From Anaerolineae bacterium (GTDB lineage Bacteria > Chloroflexota > Anaerolineae > Promineifilales > Promineifilaceae): 64,000 nucleotides of DNA. Location of the stretch: the NCBI GenBank assembly GCA_030425205.1, contig JAUIAP010000016.1, positions 55,956 through 119,955 of the forward strand, in the 5' to 3' direction. Below the pieces are notes generated by a model. The model was not told where the DNA came from, ran no database searches, and was given only the letters and a program-made list of their open reading frames with translations. The translations under genes and the position numbers were made by a program. This document shows positions 16,972-29,499 of the stretch, one piece after another (within the stretch, counting starts at the first letter, position 1; each line of letters opens with the position of its first letter).

Positions 16972-18021
16972 ATGAAGAAACGAATAACGATCGGTGACAT
17001 CGCAATAGCCGCTGGTGTTTCAAAGCAGACGGTATCACGAGCCATCAACGACAAAGATGAGATCAGTTTAGAGACAAAAGAGCGCATTATGCAACTGGTG
17101 CGTGAATTGGGCTATCGGCCGAATCGTCTCGCCCAAGCGATGAATAGCCAGCGCACGCGCATGGTTGGCCTAGTCGTTTCTGATATCACAAACGCCTTCT
17201 TCCCAGAAATAGCGCGTGGCGCACAAGACGCAGCGATGGCGCAAGATTACACGATTCTGATCGTTAACACCGATGAAAGTGCTGACCGAGAAATACAGAT
17301 GTTGGAACTGCTGGCGGCCCAGTCGGTTGATGGGATTATCTCCTTCACACACCAAATGACCGATCGACAGTTGCTCGATTTTGCGGATGGATTTCGGCCG
17401 ATTGTGATGATCAATCGCAACATCGAACATCCAAACATTAGCCGCATCATGGTTGACAACGGTCGGGGCGCGGAAATGGCCGTCGAACATCTCATCGAAC
17501 AAGGTCATCAACACATCGCCATGTTAAGCAACATAACGTTCGCACCCGGCCACGTGCGGCGCGTGCAAGGCTATTTGCGTGCCTTGAGCCGCCATCAGCT
17601 CCCCGACTATCTGCACAGCACAAACGCCTCAAGTGACGGTGGTTACAATGGCACCATCGCCTTGTTAGGCAACCATCCCCATGTGACCGCTATCTTTTGT
17701 TACAACGACATGATGGCAATTGGCGCATTGCGTGCGTGCCAAGCGACTGGCCGGCGCGTGCCAGAGGATATTGCCATCGTCGGGTTTGACGACATCCAGC
17801 TCATCTCAATGATCACCCCATCGCTCTCTTCGATTCACGTCGATAAGTATGAAATTGGCAAATTGGCATTCATGCGCGTGCTTGAACTGCTCGAAGATGA
17901 CACAAGAAAAGCAGGTGCCATCACATTAGAACCCTCAATCAAGGTGCGCGAATCATCCCAACGCCAATCGCAGCCTAAGATGCAGGTGCGTCAAGTCAAT
18001 TCTAGATCAACCTCTTCATAA
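16972..18021 (+). CDS. LacI-family transcriptional regulator
   Basis: N-terminal HTH ITIGDIAIAAGVSKQTVSRAINDKDEISLETKERIMQLVRELGYRPNRLAQAMNSQRT (classic LacI HTH + hinge), periplasmic-binding-fold sugar domain after. Start at ATG 16972 (MKKRITIGD). Confidence 0.85.
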   Translation: MKKRITIGDIAIAAGVSKQTVSRAINDKDEISLETKERIMQLVRELGYRPNRLAQAMNSQRTRMVGLVVSDITNAFFPEIARGAQDAAMAQDYTILIVNTDESADREIQMLELLAAQSVDGIISFTHQMTDRQLLDFADGFRPIVMINRNIEHPNISRIMVDNGRGAEMAVEHLIEQGHQHIAMLSNITFAPGHVRRVQGYLRALSRHQLPDYLHSTNASSDGGYNGTIALLGNHPHVTAIFCYNDMMAIGALRACQATGRRVPEDIAIVGFDDIQLISMITPSLSSIHVDKYEIGKLAFMRVLELLEDDTRKAGAITLEPSIKVRESSQRQSQPKMQVRQVNSRSTSS

Positions 18022-19241
18022 ACAGCATAGGCACGAAAGCCAAGCTGCAACGCCCGCGCACGGATGGCGGGGAATTTTGCGGTTGGTTGAGTCAACAGCA
18101 GCACGGGATTGTAACCAGCACGCACAAGTCGATGTAACGCGGCGGTCGTTGTGATGTCCCCATTGGGTGTGAGGATAAAGATGGTCGTTCCCCAGCCCAG
18201 TTTGAGTGTGGCGTGGGCGATAAATTGAAAGAGTGGTTGCGATGGGCAGCTTTCAACCCGCGCCAAAAGCTGCAAAATGTTCATTAAGTGGGGGTGACCC
18301 GTGCGGACAGGAATAGTGTTGCCGTGTTGCGTGGGGGAATCGGCCGAATTTGCCAATATCCGTCCTGTCCCCTCGTCAAAATTGACCGCATCGCCGCCCA
18401 ATGGATCAAACCCATTTGTCACCAGTCCAACCGCTTGCCGCCGCTCGCTACAGTGCGCGGCTAAAGAGGACGCTGCCGTAATCGCCCACTCAACGCGGTC
18501 GTGCAGACCGCGCCGTTCATAGTTATCATCGTTCAGATCGAGCAGGATAAAGGCCTGTAGCGAAATAGCGGGTTCGAGTGTTTTGACCATCAATCCCCCG
18601 CCCGCGCCAGCTTGCGATCGTGCGGACACCTTCCAGTTGATATGGCGCAAACTATCGCCAGCCCGATATTCACGCACGCCAATCGGCCGAGCTGGATCGG
18701 CATACAGCCGTTGATTGCTAACCAGCGTGCCAAACGGCAGACGCGAGGGTAGACGTAGCTGTTCGATTGGCACGATATGGGGATAAACGGTTAAGTATTG
18801 TGCGGGAAAGGTGGCCTCAATATTTTGAAAGCCAAAGATGTCGCCCGATTCGAGCTTGAGCGGCCCGATGCGATAGTAGCCGCGACGCATGGCACGCGCC
18901 GTATAGTGAAATTCGGCCGAATCCATCCCCCCCAATGCAACCGCCGTATTTAAATCTGTCCCGCTGCGCAGTTGCAACGGCGTCATTTCACGTAGCCGCA
19001 GCCACGTCAACGGCAAGCGGCTTTGATTTTCTACCGTCAACGTAATCGGGACTTCTTCTCCCAAAAAAGCGTTTGGGGCAAAAGCACGACTGATATGCAG
19101 TTTTGTAATTGAACGCGGAACTTGCCAGCGCGAATAAAGATAGAGTGCAGCGAGAACGTAGGCAACGTAGAAGATGAAGCTGACACGCAACAGGCCAGCA
19201 ATTAATAAGATAACGAGGATAAGCAGGGGAAGGCGTTTCAA
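17991..19241 (-). CDS. DUF58 domain protein (MoxR-associated vWA-like family) with N-terminal TM anchor
   Basis: N-terminal two TM helices then DUF58-type region (..YRAGDSLRHINWKVSARS..LMVKTLE..); no MoxR AAA+ partner visible in window. Confidence 0.55.
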   Translation of the reverse strand: MKRLPLLILVILLIAGLLRVSFIFYVAYVLAALYLYSRWQVPRSITKLHISRAFAPNAFLGEEVPITLTVENQSRLPLTWLRLREMTPLQLRSGTDLNTAVALGGMDSAEFHYTARAMRRGYYRIGPLKLESGDIFGFQNIEATFPAQYLTVYPHIVPIEQLRLPSRLPFGTLVSNQRLYADPARPIGVREYRAGDSLRHINWKVSARSQAGAGGGLMVKTLEPAISLQAFILLDLNDDNYERRGLHDRVEWAITAASSLAAHCSERRQAVGLVTNGFDPLGGDAVNFDEGTGRILANSADSPTQHGNTIPVRTGHPHLMNILQLLARVESCPSQPLFQFIAHATLKLGWGTTIFILTPNGDITTTAALHRLVRAGYNPVLLLTQPTAKFPAIRARALQLGFRAYAVYEEVDLELT

Positions 19242-19303: not shown

Positions 19304-19375
19304 TTGCGGGGACAGGATTCGAACCTGCGACCTCCGGGTTATGAGCCCGACGAGCTGCCTCTGCTCTACCCCGCG
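19304..19375 (-). tRNA. tRNA-Met (CAT anticodon), initiator-like
   Basis: Reverse complement reads CGCGGGGTAGAGCAGAGGCAGCTCGTCGGGCTCATAACCCGGAGGTCGCAGGTTCGAATCCTGTCCCCGCAA: cloverleaf with CTCATAA anticodon loop, three consecutive G-C pairs in anticodon stem and C1 unpaired with A72 as in bacterial initiator tRNA; T-loop TTCGAAT; CCA not encoded. Ends approximate +/-2 nt. Confidence 0.85.
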
Positions 19376-19439: not shown

Positions 19440-20492
19440 TCAGCAAACGAGCGACCGATCGACATCGGCAATTGTCGCACAGCCACAGAGGTAGAGCGCA
19501 TTCTCAATTTCAAAACGTAGCATTTCAAGCACGTGGGCAACCCCTGCCCCACCACCGACGGCCAGCCCCCAAAGCGGCGGTCGGCCGATCAAAACCGCCT
19601 GCGCGCCTAATGCGAGCGCCTTGACAACATCGACGCCACGCCGCACGCCGCCGTCCATCAAGATCTCGATTTGATCGCCCACCGCATCGGCGATGGCGGG
19701 GAGCGCATCAATTGTCGCTATCGCCGTATCCAACTGGCGGCCGCCGTGGTTGGAGACGATGATCCCCTGCACGCCAGCGTCCACTGCACGCCGCGCATCG
19801 TCATCGCGCAAGATCCCCTTGAGCCAAACGGGAAGTCGCGTCTGTTCTTGCAGCCAGCGCACATCATCCCACGATAGGTTGTGCTTTGTGTGATCGCGCA
19901 CAAAGACGCCCCAACCGCCACTCAGATCAATGCCAAACTCGTCAATGTGCGGGCGTGCCAGCACGTCGGGAAAGGTGAAGCCAACCCGATTGAGATTCTC
20001 GCGCAACCCGGCAACGGGGAGATCGACGGTAAGCACGATGGCGGAACAATCGGCCGATTCTGCCCTTTCCAACATGCGCTCGACAATCTCACGGTTATAC
20101 GCCATATAAAGCTGAAACCACGTGCGATGCCCTGCGGCAACAACGTCTTCAACGGCTGTCGTTGAAAATGTACTCAACACCTGTGTAATGCCCGCCCCCT
20201 GCGCCGCTCGTGCCACGCCAAGCTCTGCCTCTGGATGTGCCAGCCGATTGACCGCTGTCGGCGCAATCATCACGGGCATCGCCATCTGTTCACCTTGAAT
20301 CGTCGTCTCAAGCGAAACGGCATCGATCCCCATCAACATGCGCGGGCGCAACCGAATCCGCTCAAACGCGGCACGATTGTCGCGCAGCGTGATGTTGTCG
20401 GTCACACCGCCCGCATAGTAGGCATACGCACCCGCTGCCATCACTTCCTGCGCCGCCTGTTCATAGTCGAATAAGTTGAGTAGTTGAGTCAT
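19440..20492 (-). CDS. FMN-dependent alpha-hydroxy acid dehydrogenase/oxidase (L-lactate dehydrogenase / glycolate oxidase family)
   Basis: TIM-barrel FMN family motifs: ..MIAPTA.., ..IVLTVDLPV.., SNHGGRQLD, C-terminal ..GRPPLWGLA..; start chosen at ATG 20492 (MTQLLNLFDY) instead of 20570. Confidence 0.8.
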   Translation of the reverse strand: MTQLLNLFDYEQAAQEVMAAGAYAYYAGGVTDNITLRDNRAAFERIRLRPRMLMGIDAVSLETTIQGEQMAMPVMIAPTAVNRLAHPEAELGVARAAQGAGITQVLSTFSTTAVEDVVAAGHRTWFQLYMAYNREIVERMLERAESADCSAIVLTVDLPVAGLRENLNRVGFTFPDVLARPHIDEFGIDLSGGWGVFVRDHTKHNLSWDDVRWLQEQTRLPVWLKGILRDDDARRAVDAGVQGIIVSNHGGRQLDTAIATIDALPAIADAVGDQIEILMDGGVRRGVDVVKALALGAQAVLIGRPPLWGLAVGGGAGVAHVLEMLRFEIENALYLCGCATIADVDRSLVC

Positions 20493-20746
20493 GGCCGTTT
20501 TTATACCATATTCGGTCGGGGGAAAACGAGTGATTGTCACGTTGATATAGGTGTAAGCTGTGATGCGCAAGGATTCTATGGGATATGAGTAGGAGCGCGA
20601 CCAGCTTGGTCACCAATCAAACAAGCGACCAAGCTGATCGCGCTCCCAGAAACATATCTGCCTGCACGATTTTGCACCATTTCTCGATCACCTATTGACT
20701 TAGTGTATTTTCTACACTATAATAGTTAGTGTAATCGAGACACGAA

Positions 20747-21814
20747 ATGTTAAATCTATTCAACAACTACCTACTCAAGCTGCGACAGGCAGCACAACCA
20801 GAAGACGTGTTTGGCAGATTGTCCGCCCCGCAAGCAGAATGTTTGCGCGAGTTGTATAGGGACATGGTGATCGAACTGCATCCCGACCACAATCAACTGC
20901 GCGTCGCAGAGGCGACGGAAGCGTTTAAGCTGCTACAAGAGTGGCACGAGGCGGCCAAGATCAAGGTGGCGGCTGGGACGTATGGCACAGAGCCAACGCT
21001 TGAGGTTTCTTCACGCCGACATCACTATGTCAGCGCAAAACCAGCCATCGCAGGTGATTTGAGTGATGTTTTTACGGCGCGTGCGGATGGTAAGCGCAAG
21101 GTTGTTGTGAAGGTGGTGCGCCATCCAAAAAACAATGACCTACTGCTGGCGGAAGCGACTGCGCTACGTGAGCTGCATGAGCATCTCGACCGCACGCCGC
21201 TACGCGCACATTTCCCCGTCCTAATCGAGACATTTCGTCTCAAAGATGAAAGCGGTGCAGAACGCCAGACAAACGTGTTGCGCCATGAGGCGGAGGTGTT
21301 TTCACTGGCCGACGTGCGGAAAAAGTATCCAGACGGGATTGATCCGGCGGATGCGGCGTGGATGTTCAATCGCATGATTGCGGCATTGGGCAAGACACAT
21401 GAGGTCGGGTTGGTGCATGGGGCGATTGTGCCGGAGCATGTGTTGATTCGGCCGAAAGATCACAACGGCATCCTGATCGACTGGTGTTACAGCGTGCGTT
21501 CAGGTGAACAGATCAAGGCGATCAGCCCATCCCGCAAGGCGTTCTACCCGCCCGAAGTGTTGCAAAAGTTAGCGGCAACACCCGCTACAGACTTATTTAT
21601 GGCGGCGCAATGTATGATCGAGATTCTCGGCGGCGATGTGGCAACGGGGCAACTGCCATCCAGTGTGCCGAAGCCAATTGCAGCCCTGCTACGTGCGTGT
21701 TTGATTCCTGCGCCGAAGCGACGTTATCAAAACGCCTGGCATATTTTTGACGATTTCAAAGAGATTTTAGAACGGCTTTATGGTGAACCTACGTTCAGGT
21801 CGTTCACGATGTAG
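20747..21814 (+). CDS. J-domain (DnaJ-like, HPD motif) fused to protein-kinase-like domain lacking catalytic Asp (predicted pseudokinase)
   Basis: N-terminus ..FGRLSAPQAECLRELYRDMVIELHPDHN..EAFKLLQEWHEA = J-domain helices II/III with HPD; then kinase-like lobe: VVVKVVRHPK (beta3 Lys), LLAEATALRELHE (alphaC Glu), LVHGAIVPEHVLI (HRD replaced by HGA), LIDWCYS (DFG replaced by DWC). Confidence 0.55.
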   Translation: MLNLFNNYLLKLRQAAQPEDVFGRLSAPQAECLRELYRDMVIELHPDHNQLRVAEATEAFKLLQEWHEAAKIKVAAGTYGTEPTLEVSSRRHHYVSAKPAIAGDLSDVFTARADGKRKVVVKVVRHPKNNDLLLAEATALRELHEHLDRTPLRAHFPVLIETFRLKDESGAERQTNVLRHEAEVFSLADVRKKYPDGIDPADAAWMFNRMIAALGKTHEVGLVHGAIVPEHVLIRPKDHNGILIDWCYSVRSGEQIKAISPSRKAFYPPEVLQKLAATPATDLFMAAQCMIEILGGDVATGQLPSSVPKPIAALLRACLIPAPKRRYQNAWHIFDDFKEILERLYGEPTFRSFTM

Positions 21815-21857
21815 TGTGGCAATGGGCAAAAACCCATTCAACAATAAGGAGCATATC

Positions 21858-22850
21858 ATGGGTTATTCAAAATGGAGCAATGCAGCATTCGATTCACGCC
21901 AAACAGACCGTAAGCGCACTGGCACAACGGCGTTCAAGTATGACAAACACGTGCGCCAAACAGGGGTTGTCAAGATCCACCCCGACATGGATCCGTATGG
22001 CAAAACGCGGGAGAGTCGCGACAGCGACGACCATCCCGAATCAGTATCAATCGCCGTCCTGTTTGACGTGACGGGTTCGATGGGACAGGTTCCGCGCGTC
22101 ATGCAAACAAAACTCGGCGCACTGATGCGTGTGCTGATCCAAAAGGGGTATCTCGAACATCCACAAGTGCTGTTTGGCGGTATTGGCGATGCCTATTGCG
22201 ACCGTGTGCCATTGCAAATCGGGCAGTTTGAGTCAGGTCTTGAGATGGACGACGATCTCGGCAAAATTTTCATCGAAGGTGGCGGCGGCGGTCAGGTATA
22301 CGAGAGCTATGAGCTTGGCGTGTACTTTATGGCGAAGCACACGTCGATCGATTGCTGGGAAAAGCGCGGCAAGAAAGGATATCTGTTCACGATTGGGGAC
22401 GAAAAGCCGTATGACGTCGTGCGCAAGGAGCAGATTGAGAAGCACATTGGGGACAAGGTGCGTGGGAATGTCGATTCGGCCGAAATTTTCAACGAGGCCC
22501 AGAAAATGTACGAACATTTCCACATCATTCCAACCAACACCGCACACGGCAAAAACCCCGCCATCCATGAGCATTGGCGCAAATACATGGGTGAGCGCGT
22601 GCTGATCTTGGACGACGAAACGGCCGTCTGCGAAACGATTGCGCTCGCCATCGCCCTCTGTGAAGGCACCATCGACGATCTGTACAGTGGAGTCGATGAT
22701 CTGGTCAGCGCAGGCTATGACGCGACAGCGACAAAGGCGGCAACGTCTGCCCTCAAGCCATACGCTACACGGCGTGAAGGGTCTCTCGTCAAAGTAGTCG
22801 CAGGTAAATTGAAAGCGGCTGTCGCTGGCGGCGACGACGGACGACTTTAG
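21858..22850 (+). CDS. von Willebrand factor type A (vWA) domain protein with intact MIDAS motif
   Basis: ATG at 21858 preceded by AGGAG; VLFDVTGSMG (DxSxS MIDAS), downstream conserved Thr/Asp positions, ~330 aa; 44 nt after kinase-like gene stop. Confidence 0.6.
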   Translation: MGYSKWSNAAFDSRQTDRKRTGTTAFKYDKHVRQTGVVKIHPDMDPYGKTRESRDSDDHPESVSIAVLFDVTGSMGQVPRVMQTKLGALMRVLIQKGYLEHPQVLFGGIGDAYCDRVPLQIGQFESGLEMDDDLGKIFIEGGGGGQVYESYELGVYFMAKHTSIDCWEKRGKKGYLFTIGDEKPYDVVRKEQIEKHIGDKVRGNVDSAEIFNEAQKMYEHFHIIPTNTAHGKNPAIHEHWRKYMGERVLILDDETAVCETIALAIALCEGTIDDLYSGVDDLVSAGYDATATKAATSALKPYATRREGSLVKVVAGKLKAAVAGGDDGRL

Positions 22851-22914
22851 TTAGCAACAGTTTGCAGTGGACAGCCCCAAAACTGTTCACTGCAAGCTGA
22901 TCACTTGGTAAATC

Positions 22915-24243
22915 ATGCGACAAGCTATTCTAACCACCGATCTCGGCTTTGGTGACGCGGGTAAAGGGGCGATCACCGACTATCTGACACGCCAGCACAA
23001 CGCACACACTGTCGTGCGCTTCAACGGCGGCGCGCAGGCGGGGCATCGCGTTGTGACCGATAGCGGTGAACACGTCTTTTCCCAATTTGGCAGCGGCACG
23101 TTGGCAGGGGCGCGCACCCATCTTTCACGCTTTATGCTTGTCGAACCGTTGGCCATGCTAGCCGAAGCAGAACATTTACAGGAGCTAGGTATTCGTGATC
23201 CGTTTGGCATGACAACAATTGATGAACGCGCATTGGTGACAACACCGTTTCAGCGCGCGGTCAATCGGTTGAAAGAGCTGGCGCGCGGCGACGGGCGGCA
23301 CGGCAGCTGCGGGATGGGGATTGGCGAGACGATGGTCGATTGGCTGGCACATGGGGGGGATGTCCTCTATTGTGGCGACTTTTCCACCCCTACCCAACTC
23401 AAAGCCAAATTGCGCCATCTTCAGGCTGTCAACCAAGTCAAAGCGGCCACGCTGCGCGATCAACTCCCCGACACGCCACAGGCGCAACAGGAATGGGATT
23501 GTCTGCACGATCCCAACGCCGTAGACCGCATCATTGTGGCCTATGCCCCCTTTATTGAACTTGCGCATGTCGTTCCCAGCGACTACCTGCACCTTTTGCT
23601 TGGGCGTGATGGCACGATCATTTTTGAACCAGCCCAAGGAGTGCTGCTCGATGAGTGGTACGGGTTTCATCCGTATACGACGTGGAGCACAACCACATTG
23701 GCAAATGCAGAAACATTGCTACACGAAGCGGATTACAAGGGTAAAGTTGTGCGCATCGGCATCACGCGCGCCTACACCCCGCGACATGGCGCGGGCCCCT
23801 TGCCAACGGAAGGTGCCCAATTGACAGCACTACTGCCCGATGCACGCAATGGCTTTGATGCATGGCAGGAAGGGTTTCGAGTTGGCTGGCTCGATCTGGT
23901 GTTGTTGCGCTATGCGCTAAGCGTCGTCGGCAAGCTCGACGGGCTGGCCGTGACCTGTTTGGATCGCGTTGTGGGGTTGCCCGAGTTGAAGATTTGTACG
24001 AGTTATCGGGGGAGTGGCGAGATCGAAAAGTGGCAAGGGACAGTGGGAATTTCGGCCGAAAACGCCATTCTCGCCCATCAATCCCAATTAACCGCCGACC
24101 TCCTGCAAAGCCAACCCAACTTGCAGACGATCGATTCGGCCGAAACGCTATTAACAACTATCGAACGAGAGACAGGACTCGACGTGCTGATTGAAGGGTG
24201 GGGTGCGGCAGCGGATGCAAAGCGGAAAAGAGAAGGCGCGTAA
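22915..24243 (+). CDS. adenylosuccinate synthetase (PurA)-family ligase, divergent paralog
   Basis: 442 aa, PurA length; GFGDAGKGAITDYL (vs canonical GAQWGDEGKGKIVD: second Lys of GKGK lost), NGGAQAGHRVV (vs QGGHNAGHT), FSQFGSG (vs LIPSG), CGMGIGET (vs TGRGIGPAYEDK). Fold-level match to PurA but key signature deviations. Confidence 0.55.
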   Translation: MRQAILTTDLGFGDAGKGAITDYLTRQHNAHTVVRFNGGAQAGHRVVTDSGEHVFSQFGSGTLAGARTHLSRFMLVEPLAMLAEAEHLQELGIRDPFGMTTIDERALVTTPFQRAVNRLKELARGDGRHGSCGMGIGETMVDWLAHGGDVLYCGDFSTPTQLKAKLRHLQAVNQVKAATLRDQLPDTPQAQQEWDCLHDPNAVDRIIVAYAPFIELAHVVPSDYLHLLLGRDGTIIFEPAQGVLLDEWYGFHPYTTWSTTTLANAETLLHEADYKGKVVRIGITRAYTPRHGAGPLPTEGAQLTALLPDARNGFDAWQEGFRVGWLDLVLLRYALSVVGKLDGLAVTCLDRVVGLPELKICTSYRGSGEIEKWQGTVGISAENAILAHQSQLTADLLQSQPNLQTIDSAETLLTTIERETGLDVLIEGWGAAADAKRKREGA

Positions 24244-24244
24244 T

Positions 24245-24306
24245 ATTGCGTGTTGCGTATTGCGTATTGACCGCTGGATACGCACCACGCAATACGCAAT
24301 ACGTGT
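24245..24306. repeat. intergenic hairpin repeat, degenerate copy 2 (GCGTATTGCGTATTG ... TACGCACCACGCAATACGCAATACG)
   Basis: Inverted repeat between convergent PurA-like and recJ genes; contains the TACGCACCACGCA core of the family; likely bidirectional terminator. Confidence 0.5.
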
Positions 24307-24341: not shown

Positions 24342-26057
24342 TCACGCCGCTGGTCGAATATCCTTAATCATCAACTGCAACGTCCGTCGCCCGTTCCACT
24401 CATTGACGTTGACGCTATAAACAATATCGACGTATTGTGGCATTTGGGTAGCCCAAGAGGCTTGGCGGAAAGCGATCGTTTTGAACCCTGCGCGACCGTT
24501 GGTCACTTCCATTTGTAGATGGGTCTGATCTTTGCCGACGACGCGATGGCTGAGCACTTCGACACCTGAGGACATAAAGATCGGCCGATGATTCTCCATC
24601 CCACACGGCTCTAACTGTTGCAAATTTTCATACAACGCCCAGTCGATTTGATCGAGGTCGATTTCTGCGTCAATGTCGATGCTCGGCAGAAGTTCCTTGC
24701 CTTCAAGTGCGGTGCGGGCGATGTCGGTCATCTGCTCTTGGAAGAGTGGTAAATTTTTGTTTTCGACCGTAAAGCCAGCGGCAGCCGCATGTCCACCATG
24801 CCGCAAAAGCAGATGTGAAATTTCATCCAGCGCATCGGTGATGTGAAATTCATCAATCGAACGACAGGAGCCACGACTTTCCTCTTCCCCTTTCTCGATG
24901 ATGATGGCGGGGCGATAATGTTTGTCGGACAGGCGGCTGGCAACAAGACCCACGACCCCAGCCACAAAATTTTCACCCGCTGCGATCAAAATGGGGGCAT
25001 CTTCATCAATCATCCCTTCCGCCGCAATGCCCAAATCTTCAGTCAATTTTTGCCGCTTGCGGTTGAGCGATTCCAGTTCACGGGCGAGATTTAAGGCTGA
25101 GCGGCGGTCATGTGCGGCGAGCAGTTTGGCAGCGTCGTAGGCATGAGAAAGACGACCAGCCGCATTAATCCGCGGGCCGATGTTGAAGGCGATGGTTTCG
25201 GCCGAAATCGCCCCACCCTTGACGTTCGCCACTTCTCCCAACGCCGCAATCCCCGCACGCTTTGTGCCGTTCATCACGCGTAACCCATCGCGCACCAGCT
25301 TACGATTCTCGCCTAACAGCGGAGCCAAGTCGGCTACCGTCCCAATGGCGACGAGATCGAGCACGTTGTTGAGATCGAAGCGCACATAGTTTGGCATCGC
25401 CTGATAACAGGCCTGCGCCAATTTATAGGCAATCCCAACCCCTGCCAACATCTTTTCGGGATAGTCACAGGGTAGTTTGGGGTTGATGACGGCGAGTGCG
25501 GGGGGAATTTTTCGGCCGATGCTGTGATGATCGGTCACGATCATATCCAATCCGATGCTATTGGCGTGTTCAACCTCTTGCACTGAGCGAATACCGCAAT
25601 CAACCGAAATGACCAAATCTGCGCCGACCGTCTCCTTGATATGGGTGAGCGCATCGTTGTTCAAGCCATACCCCTCATCAACGCGATCGGGAATGTAGGG
25701 CTGTGCATTGCGGCGGGATATTCCCAAGCCACGCAACGCCTCTGTGAGCAACACGGTCGATGTCACACCATCCGCGTCAAAATCACCATAGACAACAATT
25801 CGTTCGTCCTGCTCAATCGCCTGTTGAATCCGCGCAACCGCCTTATCCATGTCGGGCAGCAGAAACGGATCTTCAGTTTCAAGATAATGCCCCTCAATAA
25901 ATCCTTGAATTTGAGCGGGGGTGGTCAATCCACGATTAAACAGCACCTGTACAAAGACAGGGTGCAGATTTGGCAACTGTGTTGCGAGTGTCGGTGCGAT
26001 TTTTGGTTGAACGTGCCAGCGTTTGGCGCGCAGGTCGAGCGGTCTTACAATTCCCAT
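24342..26057 (-). CDS. recJ: single-stranded-DNA-specific exonuclease RecJ
   Basis: DHH family motifs VVYGDFDADGVTSTVLL (motif I/II), MIVTDHHS (DHH motif III), DHHA1 region ..GGHAAAAGFTV.., OB-fold C-terminus; 571 aa. Confidence 0.9.
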   Translation of the reverse strand: MGIVRPLDLRAKRWHVQPKIAPTLATQLPNLHPVFVQVLFNRGLTTPAQIQGFIEGHYLETEDPFLLPDMDKAVARIQQAIEQDERIVVYGDFDADGVTSTVLLTEALRGLGISRRNAQPYIPDRVDEGYGLNNDALTHIKETVGADLVISVDCGIRSVQEVEHANSIGLDMIVTDHHSIGRKIPPALAVINPKLPCDYPEKMLAGVGIAYKLAQACYQAMPNYVRFDLNNVLDLVAIGTVADLAPLLGENRKLVRDGLRVMNGTKRAGIAALGEVANVKGGAISAETIAFNIGPRINAAGRLSHAYDAAKLLAAHDRRSALNLARELESLNRKRQKLTEDLGIAAEGMIDEDAPILIAAGENFVAGVVGLVASRLSDKHYRPAIIIEKGEEESRGSCRSIDEFHITDALDEISHLLLRHGGHAAAAGFTVENKNLPLFQEQMTDIARTALEGKELLPSIDIDAEIDLDQIDWALYENLQQLEPCGMENHRPIFMSSGVEVLSHRVVGKDQTHLQMEVTNGRAGFKTIAFRQASWATQMPQYVDIVYSVNVNEWNGRRTLQLMIKDIRPAA

Positions 26058-27091: not shown

Positions 27092-27937
27092 TTATGGGGT
27101 GTCATCGCCAAACGCTAAAAAGTCGCGTTGCGCCCAGCCAACCGTGCCATCAACTGTCATGATCTCTTTGTAGATGACGCCGGTGTGGTTGGCGTTGCCC
27201 GATAGCAAGATGACGGTATCGCCGTCTTGCAGGAGAATGAGATTGTTGCCACCCGGTGTGCTTTTGACCCAGAGCGTGCTGCCCCCAGTGTTGACTCGTG
27301 CGGTTGGTTGATCAATCGGCGTTGGGGTCAATGTAGGGGTTGGGCTTTGGGTGGGAGTTGGTGTGTTTGTCGGCAGTGGCGTGGGCGTGCGGGTAGGTGT
27401 TGGGGTTTCTGTTGGAATTGCGGTGGCGGGGAGTGGTGTCGATGCAGGGGCATCGGCCGATATCTCAGGCTCATCATCAGCCGCAACGGCGGTATCGGCC
27501 TGTACGGGTTCAACAGAATCGACGCTCTCTTCAAATTGAGTCGCATCATCGGCCGATCCGCTGCCATCATTACCCGGCAGTGCAGCCCCCATCGCGCCCG
27601 TTACAGGCGTGCGGGAGACGACAAGACTTCCCTCAACCGTCACAACTTCTAAGGCAGCAACTTCGTCGCCGCCGTCTGCTACGGATTGCGGCTCTTCCGT
27701 TGTCGGGAGGGTCGCACCCAACGGCACGCCAGCGATATAAAAGCCAACGGTGAGCATTAAGAACGCGAACGCAATGGTTGTAAGCGCACGTACCCGTGCA
27801 TCTTTGCGATACGGTTCAATTTGAGAAGTTAGGTGTTGGCGATTTGGCGACTGCACATAAAGCGAATAGGCCACTGTGACCAATGCGCCGACAATCGAAA
27901 ATCCCATGCCTAAAATTGTCCATTGTGGAAAACCCAT
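27092..27937 (-). CDS. membrane-anchored protein with Pro/Thr-rich linker and C-terminal SH3b-like domain
   Basis: Start set at MGFPQWTILGMGFSIVGALV (27937) because longer ORF would run into lpdA promoter/CDS; two TM helices, PTPTRTPTPLPTNTPTPTQSPTPTLTPTP linker, C-terminal ..LWVKSTPGG..QDGDTVILL..VDGTVGWA.. resembles bacterial SH3. Confidence 0.5.
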   Translation of the reverse strand: MGFPQWTILGMGFSIVGALVTVAYSLYVQSPNRQHLTSQIEPYRKDARVRALTTIAFAFLMLTVGFYIAGVPLGATLPTTEEPQSVADGGDEVAALEVVTVEGSLVVSRTPVTGAMGAALPGNDGSGSADDATQFEESVDSVEPVQADTAVAADDEPEISADAPASTPLPATAIPTETPTPTRTPTPLPTNTPTPTQSPTPTLTPTPIDQPTARVNTGGSTLWVKSTPGGNNLILLQDGDTVILLSGNANHTGVIYKEIMTVDGTVGWAQRDFLAFGDDTP

Positions 27938-28104
27938 GTGAGCATTATAGCGATGGGCGTTAAATCTGTGTAATTGGGGTGAGTGGGAGGTGAGGGAAAT
28001 TCGGCCGAAAAGGTACAATCGCATGTTGAAATTTAGTGAACAGTTACCAGCAGACAGTGAATGGTTCATAAACGACGCGCTGTCAGTTGAAATGGAGTAG
28101 AAAG

Positions 28105-29499
28105 ATGGCTCAAGAATTTGATGTAGTCGTGATTGGTGCAGGCCCCGGCGGTTATGTGGCGGCGATTCGTGCAGCACAGTTGGGTTTGAAAACGGCAGTT
28201 GTGGAAAAAAAGTATTGGGGCGGTGTTTGCCTCAACATCGGCTGCATTCCAAGTAAGGCGTTGCTTTACAATGCAGAGTTGGCGAACATCTTCTCACAAC
28301 GGGCGAAAGAGTTTGGATTTTCCTATGATAACTTTTCGGCCGATTACAGTGTTGCCTTCAAACGCAGCCGCCAAACGTCCAACCGTCTCGTAAAAGGGAT
28401 CGGTCTCTTGATGCGTAAAAACAAGATTACCACCTTTGACGGTACGGCAACGTTAACGGGTAAAAACAGCGTTCAAGTCAGCCTCAACGACGGTGGTGAA
28501 GAGACGCTCAATGCCAAAAATATCATCATCTCAACGGGCGCACGCCCACGTGAGTTGCCCGGCATGGAGACAGATGGCGAGCGCGTCATCAGCTATATCC
28601 CGGCCATTATGAGCGAAAGCAATCCAGGAAAAGCGGTCATCGTGGGCGGTGGCGTGATCGGTGTTGAGTTCAGCTACATGTGGGCAAACTACGGCACAGA
28701 TGTCACCATCGTTGAGATGATGGATCGCATTCTGCCGCTGGAAGAACCGGAAGTCAGCAAGCTGCTCGCCAAAGAGTACAAGAAGATGGGCGTCAATCTC
28801 GAACTCGGCACAGTCGTCGAGAACATCGACAAGAGCGGTGAGAAAATGACGGTCACGCTCAAGAATGGCAAGGTGATCGAAGATGTCGATAAGGTGCTCG
28901 TCGCCGTCAGCTTCACGCCAAATGTCGAGAACATCGGATTAGATGCGGCAGGTGTTGAACTCAACGAACGCGGCATGGTCGGTGTCAACGACATGATGCA
29001 GACAAACGTAGACAACATCTACGCCATAGGTGACGTGACGGGTAAGTTGATGTTGGCGCATGTCGCCAGCGCGATGGGTCTCTTGGCGGCCGAGCATATC
29101 GCTGGTCATGAGGTGCAACCACTCGACCTCGACATGATGCCACGCGCCATCTACTGCCAGCCGCAAGTCGCCTCCTTCGGCTACACCGAAGCACAGGCAA
29201 AAGAGAAAGGGTATGAGATCAACGTCGGTCAATTCCCCTTTATCGCCAACGGCAAGGCACTCGGCACGGGTGACAAAGATGGTTTCGCCAAAATCATTTC
29301 GGATGCCAAGTATGGCGAAATTTTGGGCGCACACATCATCGGTCATAATGTGACAGAGCTGTTGCCTGAGCTGACGCTGGCACGCATGAATGAGTTAACG
29401 GCCGAAGAGATAGCCCGCAACGTCCACGCCCATCCAACGATGAGCGAGGCCATTATGGAAGCCGCACATGCCGTTGAAGGCGAAGCGATCCACATTTAG
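28105..29499 (+). CDS. lpdA: dihydrolipoyl dehydrogenase (E3 component)
   Basis: [31 protein letters not shown] (FAD GxGxxG), [16 protein letters not shown] (redox-active CxxxxC disulfide), NAD-binding and C-terminal HAHPT interface motif; start at ATG 28105 with GGAG RBS. Confidence 0.92.

Follow-up and report, generated by a model that had tools for sequence, protein, structure and literature searches.

A conserved vWA and PurA-like gene pair with an accessory J-domain pseudokinase in bacteria and large phages: a possible system for attaching nucleotides to a protein N-terminus

The 64,000-nt stretch of Anaerolineae bacterium contig JAUIAP010000016.1 analysed here (the window; all coordinates are relative to its start) carries three co-directional genes on the plus strand, encoding a J-domain fused to a Hanks-type pseudokinase (g1, 20747-21814, 355 residues), a vWA-fold protein belonging to no Pfam family (g2, 21858-22850, 330 residues), and a predicted nucleoside triphosphate-dependent ligase of the PurA family, apparently neofunctionalised, with an adenylosuccinate-synthetase fold (g3, 22915-24243, 442 residues). 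All three open reading frames (ORFs) of an earlier note on this DNA were recovered, as were the oppositely oriented neighbours that it named, a flavin mononucleotide (FMN)-dependent dehydrogenase gene (FMN_dh, 19440-20570) upstream and recJ (24342-26057), convergent with g3, downstream, both on the minus strand. The close spacing reported there also holds, however the values given, 44 and 65 nt, are each too large by one, with gaps of 43 nt between g1 and g2, and 64 nt between g2 and g3. Mechanical ORF calling starts g2 at 21780, however the real start lies at 21858, because the homologues all begin at the Met-Gly encoded there (MGYSKW...).

A sigma-70-type promoter (TTGACT-17-TATAAT, 20695-20723, plus strand, 11/12 consensus matches) ends 24 nt ahead of the g1 start codon, and an intrinsic-terminator scan finds no terminator-like site between g1, g2, and g3. 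Downstream, a long imperfect hairpin with TTGCGTA repeats fills positions 24244-24301 between g3 and recJ, with a fold energy of -34.3 kcal/mol (z = -4.7) that 0/200 shuffles equal. This hairpin is likely the end of the transcription unit; it has no T-tract, and the terminator scan makes no call there. As its arms consist of direct TTGCGTA heptamer repeats, the hairpin is both a tandem and an inverted repeat. The opposite-strand flanks, upstream promoter, downstream hairpin, and terminator-free gaps together make g1-g2-g3 a single self-contained operon, in agreement with the self-contained unit with a 3' hairpin described previously.

The operon is not peculiar to this genome. A scan with the g2 alignment, covering one genome per GTDB species, found g2 in at least 496 representative bacterial species, and an exhaustive hidden Markov model (HMM) search gave 2,031 g2 clusters at 50% identity. 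The loci of the best 80 of these species were taken for neighbourhood analysis, with g1 and g3 located by targeted tblastn. In 71 of the 80, g3 lies directly downstream of g2, with six more loci cut by contig ends and three truly without g3, and in most of them g1 lies directly upstream of g2. The taxa represented are Chloroflexota (Ardenticatenaceae (91%), Caldilineae, Chloroflexia, and Ktedonobacteria), many filamentous Actinomycetota, Planctomycetota, and one Terriglobales metagenome-assembled genome, and across the Chloroflexota classes g2 is ~65% identical. Complete genomes with the trio include NZ_CP041244.1, NZ_CP192077.1, CP191849.1, and Oscillochloris trichoides DG6. Three distant g3 homologues are likewise accompanied by g1 homologues amongst unrelated flanking genes; in these neighbourhoods the g2 ORF is variously whole, split, or uncalled, and tblastn recovers g2 in 3/3. 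In two unrelated Chloroflexota genomes a STAS-domain protein is encoded directly upstream of the module, combined with TPR in one (L003:2108-3655, minus strand) and with PAS in the other (L005:2809-3669, plus strand).

Phages carry the module as well. In ~200 cluster C mycobacteriophages (Bixzunavirus) a kinase gene is followed by g2, a small ORF, and a PurA-like gene, annotated as ‘serine/threonine kinase’, ‘hypothetical protein’, and ‘PurA-like adenylosuccinate synthetase’ for the three module parts, and the proteins of phage Ewok align nearly end to end with g1, g2, and g3 of the window at 37-45% identity. The intervening ORF, of 88 residues (Ewok gp262, L001:6017-6283), is missing from the bacterial loci. 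Vibrio phage Va1 and Rhizobium phage RHph_TM61 encode g2 followed by PurA, and in IMG/VR 189 contigs encode g2, with GC contents from 26% to 70% and many being 100-440 kb long. Amongst the 80 of these contigs examined, g3 adjoins g2 in 78, with a g1-like gene present in 45. In a few phage contigs (L092, L105, and L106) the g1-like gene follows g3 rather than preceding g2, so that the gene order is not absolutely fixed. The module is at least as much phage-borne as bacterial. The adjacent genes recur in the same order in Chloroflexota, Actinomycetota, Planctomycetota, and the Terriglobales genome, where the flanks are unrelated, and in phages, which answers the question, raised in the earlier note, of whether the trio co-occurs outside its lineage. 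The conserved unit proposed there therefore stands, however not as an obligate set of three, since the near-universal adjacency of g2 and g3 and the frequent absence of g1 make g2 and g3 the obligate core and g1 a frequent accessory.

The combination of PurA-like, vWA, and J-domain pseudokinase proteins had been put forward as new, and a full-text literature search whose coverage leaves out most subscription journals yielded no account of it; the module is apparently undescribed. The Nucleic Acids Research (NAR) 2026 Z-genome paper uses PurA homologues only as an outgroup.

The most telling member of the pair is g3. Its match to the Adenylsucc_synt model PF00709 runs over the full length (residues 11-432, E = 1.7e-63), PDB chains of PurA are matched at 1e-32, and the signatures GDAGKGA and GGAQAGH are both present, in agreement with the adenylosuccinate-synthetase fold with altered signatures recognised beforehand. 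Against NCBIfam, however, the best purA equivalog score is 169 bits compared with a cut-off of 402 (NF002223), and TIGR00184 gives 135 compared with a cut-off of 395.6. In an alignment of 77 family members, bacterial and phage, to E. coli PurA (whose numbering is used here), D13, K16, H41, and Q224 are invariant in 76-77/77 members, and T239 and the guanine-specifying D333 are invariant or nearly so. The L-aspartate pocket, in contrast, has been replaced throughout the family, with T300 changed to W, T301 to Q, R305 to F, and V273 to H, and R303 deleted. Amongst the ligands of the 5'-phosphate of inosine monophosphate (IMP), the changes N38 to Q and T129 to C are fixed, and the R143 position is variable, being H or Y in most bacterial members and other residues in phage copies. 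S240, in the same part of the IMP site, is fixed as W. The roles of these aspartate and IMP residues in E. coli PurA we take to be those of the Fromm and Honzatko work.

From the family-wide replacement of the aspartate ligands we infer that g3 does not use L-aspartate, that its amine acceptor is a different one, and that the ribose-phosphate end of the nucleotide site is altered too. The retained residues suggest that g3 still activates a purine 6-oxo group by means of a nucleoside triphosphate, probably GTP. Compared with PurA (EC 6.3.4.4), g3 thus shares the full-length fold, the GD-GKG P-loop, D13/K16/H41/Q224, and the guanine-binding D333, whilst differing in its L-aspartate and IMP 5'-phosphate ligands, in falling under every equivalog cut-off, and in always being encoded beside g2. 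An ordinary housekeeping purA that happens to lie beside two unrelated genes would account for the Adenylsucc_synt domain over the whole of g3 and for the name adenylosuccinate synthetase that source databases give its homologues, and no second PurA is encoded within the window. This explanation is nevertheless most improbable, with all equivalog scores far under their cut-offs, the aspartate ligands and most IMP-phosphate ligands replaced family-wide, the g2-g3 order kept in ~150 loci that include phages whose host has its own purA, and g3 closer to the mycobacteriophage copy (45% identity) than to E. coli PurA (~32%). The previous suggestion that g3 is probably not the housekeeping enzyme is accordingly strengthened, and that it is the housekeeping purA appears very unlikely from its sequence.

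A second known enzyme, phage PurZ of the 2-aminoadenine pathway, is comparable in being a phage-borne neofunctionalised PurA homologue, and PHROG 1211 groups g3 with proteins annotated as of phage PurZ type. The PurZ model NF038379, however, gives g3 27 bits compared with a cut-off of 300, over residues 8-56 of the P-loop region only, and an identity with PurZ was rejected. Unlike PurZ, the g3-type proteins are ~440 residues long and have a vWA partner, with no DatZ, MazZ, or DpoZ context seen in the loci examined.

The partner, g2, finds no match in Pfam, NCBIfam, or PADLOC, and matches phrog_2971, a family of unknown function, at 2e-67. Its predicted model, of medium confidence, adopts the Rossmann-like vWA fold, with a motif resembling a metal ion-dependent adhesion site (MIDAS), D70-V-T-G-S74, after beta-1 and G180-D181-E182 after beta-4, both invariant among homologues. 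The vWA assignment made previously is therefore upheld, whilst the complete DxSxS motif ascribed to g2 is in fact DxTxS. The most conserved stretch is an insert, residues 112-148 (GDxxCDxxPLQIGQFE...EGGGGGQ), modelled at low confidence, within which the middle MIDAS Thr position falls. In some Bixzunaviruses (for example Mycobacterium phage Rabinovish gp254, L169:265-2085), and in one metagenomic homologue, the vWA gene is interrupted by an intein (...RKGY/CNTPDAP...GFASSN/CIFIGDE...; see also P0385). As the intein is always inserted directly before the invariant IGDE strand that bears the MIDAS Asp, this site appears functionally critical.

Both termini of g2 are distinctive. The homologue alignment defines an N-terminal motif, M-G-[GSY]-[GST]-x-[WYF]-[SDN], encoded at 21858-21878 on the plus strand, with the Gly2 N-terminal peptide of the window protein being GYSKWSNAAFDSR. 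A Met-Gly start of the pattern M-G-[GSY]-[GST]-x-[WYF] is present in 162/165 homologues, with one of the three exceptions having an in-frame MGG shortly downstream and the other two probably reflecting start-codon choices. It is likewise present in 133/150 independent cluster representatives with their own gene calls, the remaining 17 being incomplete or wrongly started gene calls, and profile and protein alike are matched from residue 1 in the HMM search. The Met-Gly N-terminus is thus invariant despite an overall identity of 33%, and residues 1-7 are disordered in the predicted model (pLDDT <50). Since Met is removed before Gly, mature g2 should present a free amine, that of an invariant glycine, on a flexible tail. 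At the other end, a C-terminal -Arg-Leu (-RL) tail (22842-22847, plus strand) co-occurs with g1, being found in 61/64 loci with g1 compared with 1/17 without it (Fisher p = 5e-13, not corrected for phylogeny). The N-terminal motif is retained wherever g3 is present, with or without g1, whilst the -RL tail follows g1.

In g1, the Pfam matches to DnaJ (E = 7e-5; 23.3 bits compared with a gathering score of 27.8) and Pkinase (E = 2e-6) are both sub-threshold, however many homologues have a precomputed PF00226 match, and the phage family phrog_3043 (‘kinase’) is matched at 5e-54. The J-domain spans approximately residues 18-75, with an HPD motif (residues 45-47) that is at least 95% conserved and lies between helices 29-44 and 50-75 of the predicted model (pLDDT 93). 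The kinase fold, approximately residues 85-345, is a bilobal eukaryotic protein kinase fold in which the VAIK Lys (K122), the alpha-C Glu (E136), and the Asp of the DFG position (D245-W-C, residues 245-247) are present. The catalytic-loop HRD Asp and Asn (D166 and N171 of PKA), in contrast, are replaced by H224-G-A (residues 224-226) and H231. Each of these features, from the HPD to D245-W-C, is invariant or nearly so in 61 g1 homologues and shared by the phage copy, and because HGA and H231 stand in their place the catalytic Asp and Asn are missing throughout the homologues examined. By its sequence g1 is a J-domain fused to a catalytically degenerate Hanks-type kinase fold. The pseudokinase proposed previously is therefore sound as regards the HPD that is kept and the HGA that lacks the catalytic Asp, however not as regards DWC, which had been counted as a lost motif although it retains the metal-binding Asp, like the DWG of CK2. 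The eukaryotic GAK/auxilin proteins likewise combine a protein-kinase fold and an Hsp70-bringing J-domain in one polypeptide. Their domain order is the reverse of that of g1, which also has no PTEN/clathrin-binding region and a degenerate kinase, and the likeness is not taken as common descent.

These features of g1 also bear on the possibility that the module is a phospho-signalling system akin to the TerY-P triad of vWA protein, PP2C phosphatase, and Ser/Thr kinase, with the vWA protein controlled by Ser/Thr phosphorylation. A vWA gene does adjoin a Hanks-type kinase fold here, yet all homologues examined have other residues at the positions of the catalytic Asp and Asn, the operon contains no PP2C phosphatase gene, and g1 is dispensable in many loci in which g3 is not. 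Furthermore, g2 has no PADLOC match, and hence no TerY match if that library includes one, and the obligate partner is PurA-like. The analogy with TerY-P drawn in the earlier note fails, as neither a PP2C phosphatase nor an active kinase is present, and we regard phospho-signalling of this kind as scarcely credible.

The promoter of the operon adds a regulatory dimension. A perfect 19-bp palindrome, TAGTGT-N7-ACACTA (candidate operator 1, 20701-20719), lies between the -35 and -10 elements, and a second with one mismatch, TAGTGT-N7-ACACGA (candidate operator 2, 20727-20745), covers the transcription start and 5' untranslated region; this type of palindrome has just two matches in the window, both at the g1 promoter. 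Such tandem operators, ~25-26 bp apart, recur in ~30 Chloroflexota loci at the same positions relative to the -35 and -10 elements, a TTGAC...TAnnnT frame lies upstream of the module in ~20 Chloroflexota loci, and where g1 is absent from Chloroflexota loci the operators are placed upstream of g2 instead. Both operators share the GT-N7-AC core of the ~21-bp palindromes bound by NrtR, which ADP-ribose releases from DNA (Rodionov et al. 2008, PMC2330246). Additionally, an nrtR-like gene (NUDIX and NrtR_WHD) lies directly upstream of the module, on the same strand, in 44 Actinomycetota-type loci, and several phage loci also have an nrtR-like gene, some with TTGTGT-N7-ACACAA palindromes. The module therefore resembles NrtR regulons in the GT-N7-AC palindromes that overlap its promoter and in the adjoining nrtR-like gene of Actinomycetota and some phages, whilst differing from them in that its genes are not NAD biosynthesis, salvage, or pentose genes. 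By sequence and by analogy, it probably belongs to an ADP-ribose-responsive, NrtR-type regulon. Rodionov et al. 2008 (PMC2330246) listed uncharacterised NrtR targets, ‘nrtX-nrtY’, in a divergent arrangement, to which g2-g3 might correspond.

The spacers around the nrtR-like gene have repeats of their own. In loci L040-L087, two to four imperfect palindromes (TTCTCA-N3/4-TGAGA, ~15 bp spacing) lie ~100 nt upstream of the nrtR-like gene and overlap a -10-like box (TAnGTT), and the linked NrtR-like protein probably binds them to control its own gene. The Actinomadura/Spirillospora loci L061, L070, and L071 have, in the spacer that separates g1 from the nrtR-like gene, two to three tandem GC-rich units of ~53 nt (GAGCGAAGCGAACCGGGGGGCGTGGGGGGTCGCCCCCC...ACAGAAAT) with an internal hairpin.

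In the reaction of PurA, the alpha-amine of aspartate displaces the 6-phosphate of activated IMP. We propose that in g3 the alpha-amine of g2 Gly2 would take the place of that of aspartate, so that g3 would couple the C6 of an IMP-like purine nucleotide to the g2 N-terminus and yield a nucleotide-protein conjugate. The proposal is made because the former aspartate pocket is aromatic, the neighbouring g2 offers a glycine amine, and the Cap9 and QatC systems set a precedent. The MIDAS face and conserved insert of g2 would presumably bind a downstream target, and g1 would be an optional regulator, with its pseudokinase domain, or DnaK itself, reading the -RL tail of g2, and its J-domain bringing in the Hsp70/DnaK of the host, by which the g2-g3 complex would be remodelled or released. 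Transcription would be repressed through the two NrtR-type operators and, by analogy with NrtR, relieved by ADP-ribose and thus by NAD+ cleavage. Candidate physiological roles are NAD/ADP-ribose stress, phage-host conflict, and nucleotide homeostasis. This scheme of conjugation to Gly2, DnaK recruitment by g1, and ADP-ribose/NrtR control is drawn from sequence features and analogy, and we hold it tentatively, at rather less than an even chance.

The precedent is that of N-terminal deazaguanylation, as in type IV CBASS (cyclic oligonucleotide-based antiphage signalling system), where, with the QueC-like Cap9, the Gly2 amine of CdnD replaces ammonia after Met removal and 7-amido-7-deazaguanine is attached (10.1101/2025.04.06.647259), and of the related QatC-QatB pair, in which an N-terminal glycine motif of QatB is essential (PMC13279940). 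As in these systems, the module always pairs an enzyme of nucleoside biosynthesis with a single partner, and this partner has a conserved, flexible N-terminal Gly motif exposed by Met removal, with the MG[GS][GS]x[WYF] start of g2 resembling the GGSGGSF of CdnD. Replacement of the enzyme's usual small amine nucleophile by a protein N-terminal amine, a feature of the precedents, is hypothetical in the module. The differences are equally plain, with Cap9 and QatC being QueC-type ATP-pyrophosphatases whilst g3 belongs to the PurA family of P-loop, GTP-type ligases, whose target is a purine 6-oxo group, and with the partner being a vWA protein rather than a CD-NTase or QatB. The module has no TGT-like Cap10, QatA, QatD, effector, or QueC-like gene, and adds a J-domain pseudokinase and NrtR control. 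By analogy, it may work like the QueC-based systems without being a member of them.

Several observations weigh against the conjugation proposal or parts of it. R306 is conserved in g3, which could accommodate some other small carboxylate or amine rather than a protein, and by its sequence the IMP 5'-phosphate site is altered as well. Inter-protein covariation (mutual information with average product correction) over 146 g2-g3 pairs, comprising the window pair and 145 from the loci, gives no clear signal between the g2 N-terminus and the g3 active site. The invariant Met-Gly may instead stabilise the protein, be modified in another way, or bind a metal or a partner, and the statistic linking -RL to g1 ignores shared ancestry. 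The three bacterial loci with g2 and no nearby g3 (L016, L022, and L052) have unrelated genes downstream, amongst which no alternative enzyme partner was found. As for regulation, the Actinomycetota repeats (TCTCA-N3/4-TGAGA type) are without the GT-N7-AC core, and no nrtR gene was found in the window or the Chloroflexota flanks, so that in Chloroflexota the regulator is predicted from the motif alone.

Some of these points would suit a small-molecule enzyme, in which g3 uses some amine besides aspartate to ligate or aminate a free nucleotide (such as a hypoxanthine or guanine mono- or dinucleotide of NAD/ADP-ribose turnover), making or repairing a metabolite or signal, and g2 with g1/DnaK only assembles, activates, or switches off the enzyme. 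The full catalytic set and guanine-specifying Asp retained by g3 would fit this role, as would a carboxylate held by R306, whilst NrtR-type control and the adjacent nrtR-like gene point to an NAD/ADP-ribose regulon, and the phage pair lies among nucleotide-metabolism genes, namely ribonucleotide reductase in Va1 and NadV-like and NMNAT/Nudix genes in RHph_TM61. The part of g2 and g1 is then likened to that of the vWA adaptors of MoxR-type activases (CbbQO, NorQD, and RavA-ViaA), which by analogy share with the module a MIDAS-bearing vWA adaptor and ATP-driven remodelling of a specific enzyme. Here, however, the remodeller would be an Hsp70/DnaK recruited by the J-domain, and the module, having no AAA+ gene, is not a MoxR-vWA system. 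A small-molecule role leaves unexplained both the obligate g2 neighbour of g3 in minimal phage versions and the invariant Met-Gly of g2 at 33% overall identity, and the former aspartate pocket, now aromatic and hydrophobic (W, F, and H), does not look suited to a small polar amine. This reading is the chief rival of the conjugation scheme, with a real claim, albeit a doubtful one.

A role in conflict, compatible with either the conjugation or the small-molecule mechanism, would have the bacterial module, once triggered, deplete or alter purine nucleotides in the manner of abortive infection, with the phage version serving counter-defence or takeover. NADase defences yield ADP-ribose, and phages are known to counter them. 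The NrtR effector is thus a product of such defences, Cap9 and QatC, the precedents, both belong to immune systems, and the module is common to large phages and bacteria. Furthermore, g1, for which a PADLOC search gives generic kinase matches only, shows weak similarity to the defence-associated kinases MkoA (2e-15), PD-T4-6, and MAD6. Against this, g2 and g3 match no PADLOC model, the flanks are housekeeping rather than defence genes, and the module contains no obvious effector such as a nuclease, pore, or NADase. The high and apparently vertical conservation, with g2 kept at ~65% identity across Chloroflexota classes together with the operator, is also unlike that of fast-turnover defence islands. 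A conflict role is accordingly judged unlikely, and nothing found here demonstrates the abortive-infection role suggested in the earlier note.

Further features of the window lie beyond the operon. A tRNA-Met gene (CAT, 19304-19375, minus strand) is situated between the FMN-dependent dehydrogenase gene and a gene for a DUF58 protein (17991-19241, minus strand). The DUF58 family usually accompanies MoxR AAA+ and vWA ‘Bat’-type operons, and this other vWA-associated gene appears unrelated to the module. An ORF at 27092-28177 (minus strand) encodes a long low-complexity Pro/Thr-rich linker (TPTPTRTPTPLPTNTPTPTQSPTPTLTPTP).

Taken as a whole, a new protein modification, in which PurA-type chemistry conjugates a nucleotide through C6 to the N-terminal glycine of a vWA protein, gated by an Hsp70-recruiting pseudokinase and switched by ADP-ribose/NrtR, in filamentous bacteria and large phages, is a speculative claim that we put forward with corresponding doubt. 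The module is not rare, with its 2,031 g2 clusters, at least 496 species, and 189 IMG/VR contigs, and yet g2 stands outside Pfam. If the claim is true, the recycling of nucleotide-biosynthesis enzymes as taggers of protein N-termini would extend beyond QueC, and the conjugation of nucleobases or nucleotides to N-termini would have been invented twice, by independent chemistries, in the QueC-based deazaguanylation systems and in this module. The ‘PurA-like’ genes of ~200 sequenced mycobacteriophages and of many jumbo phages would gain a function, and a single system would link purine chemistry, Hsp70, and NAD+/ADP-ribose sensing. Should the proposed chemistry prove wrong, there would still be a PurA subfamily whose substrate site has been rebuilt, and a new, probably NrtR-controlled gene set.

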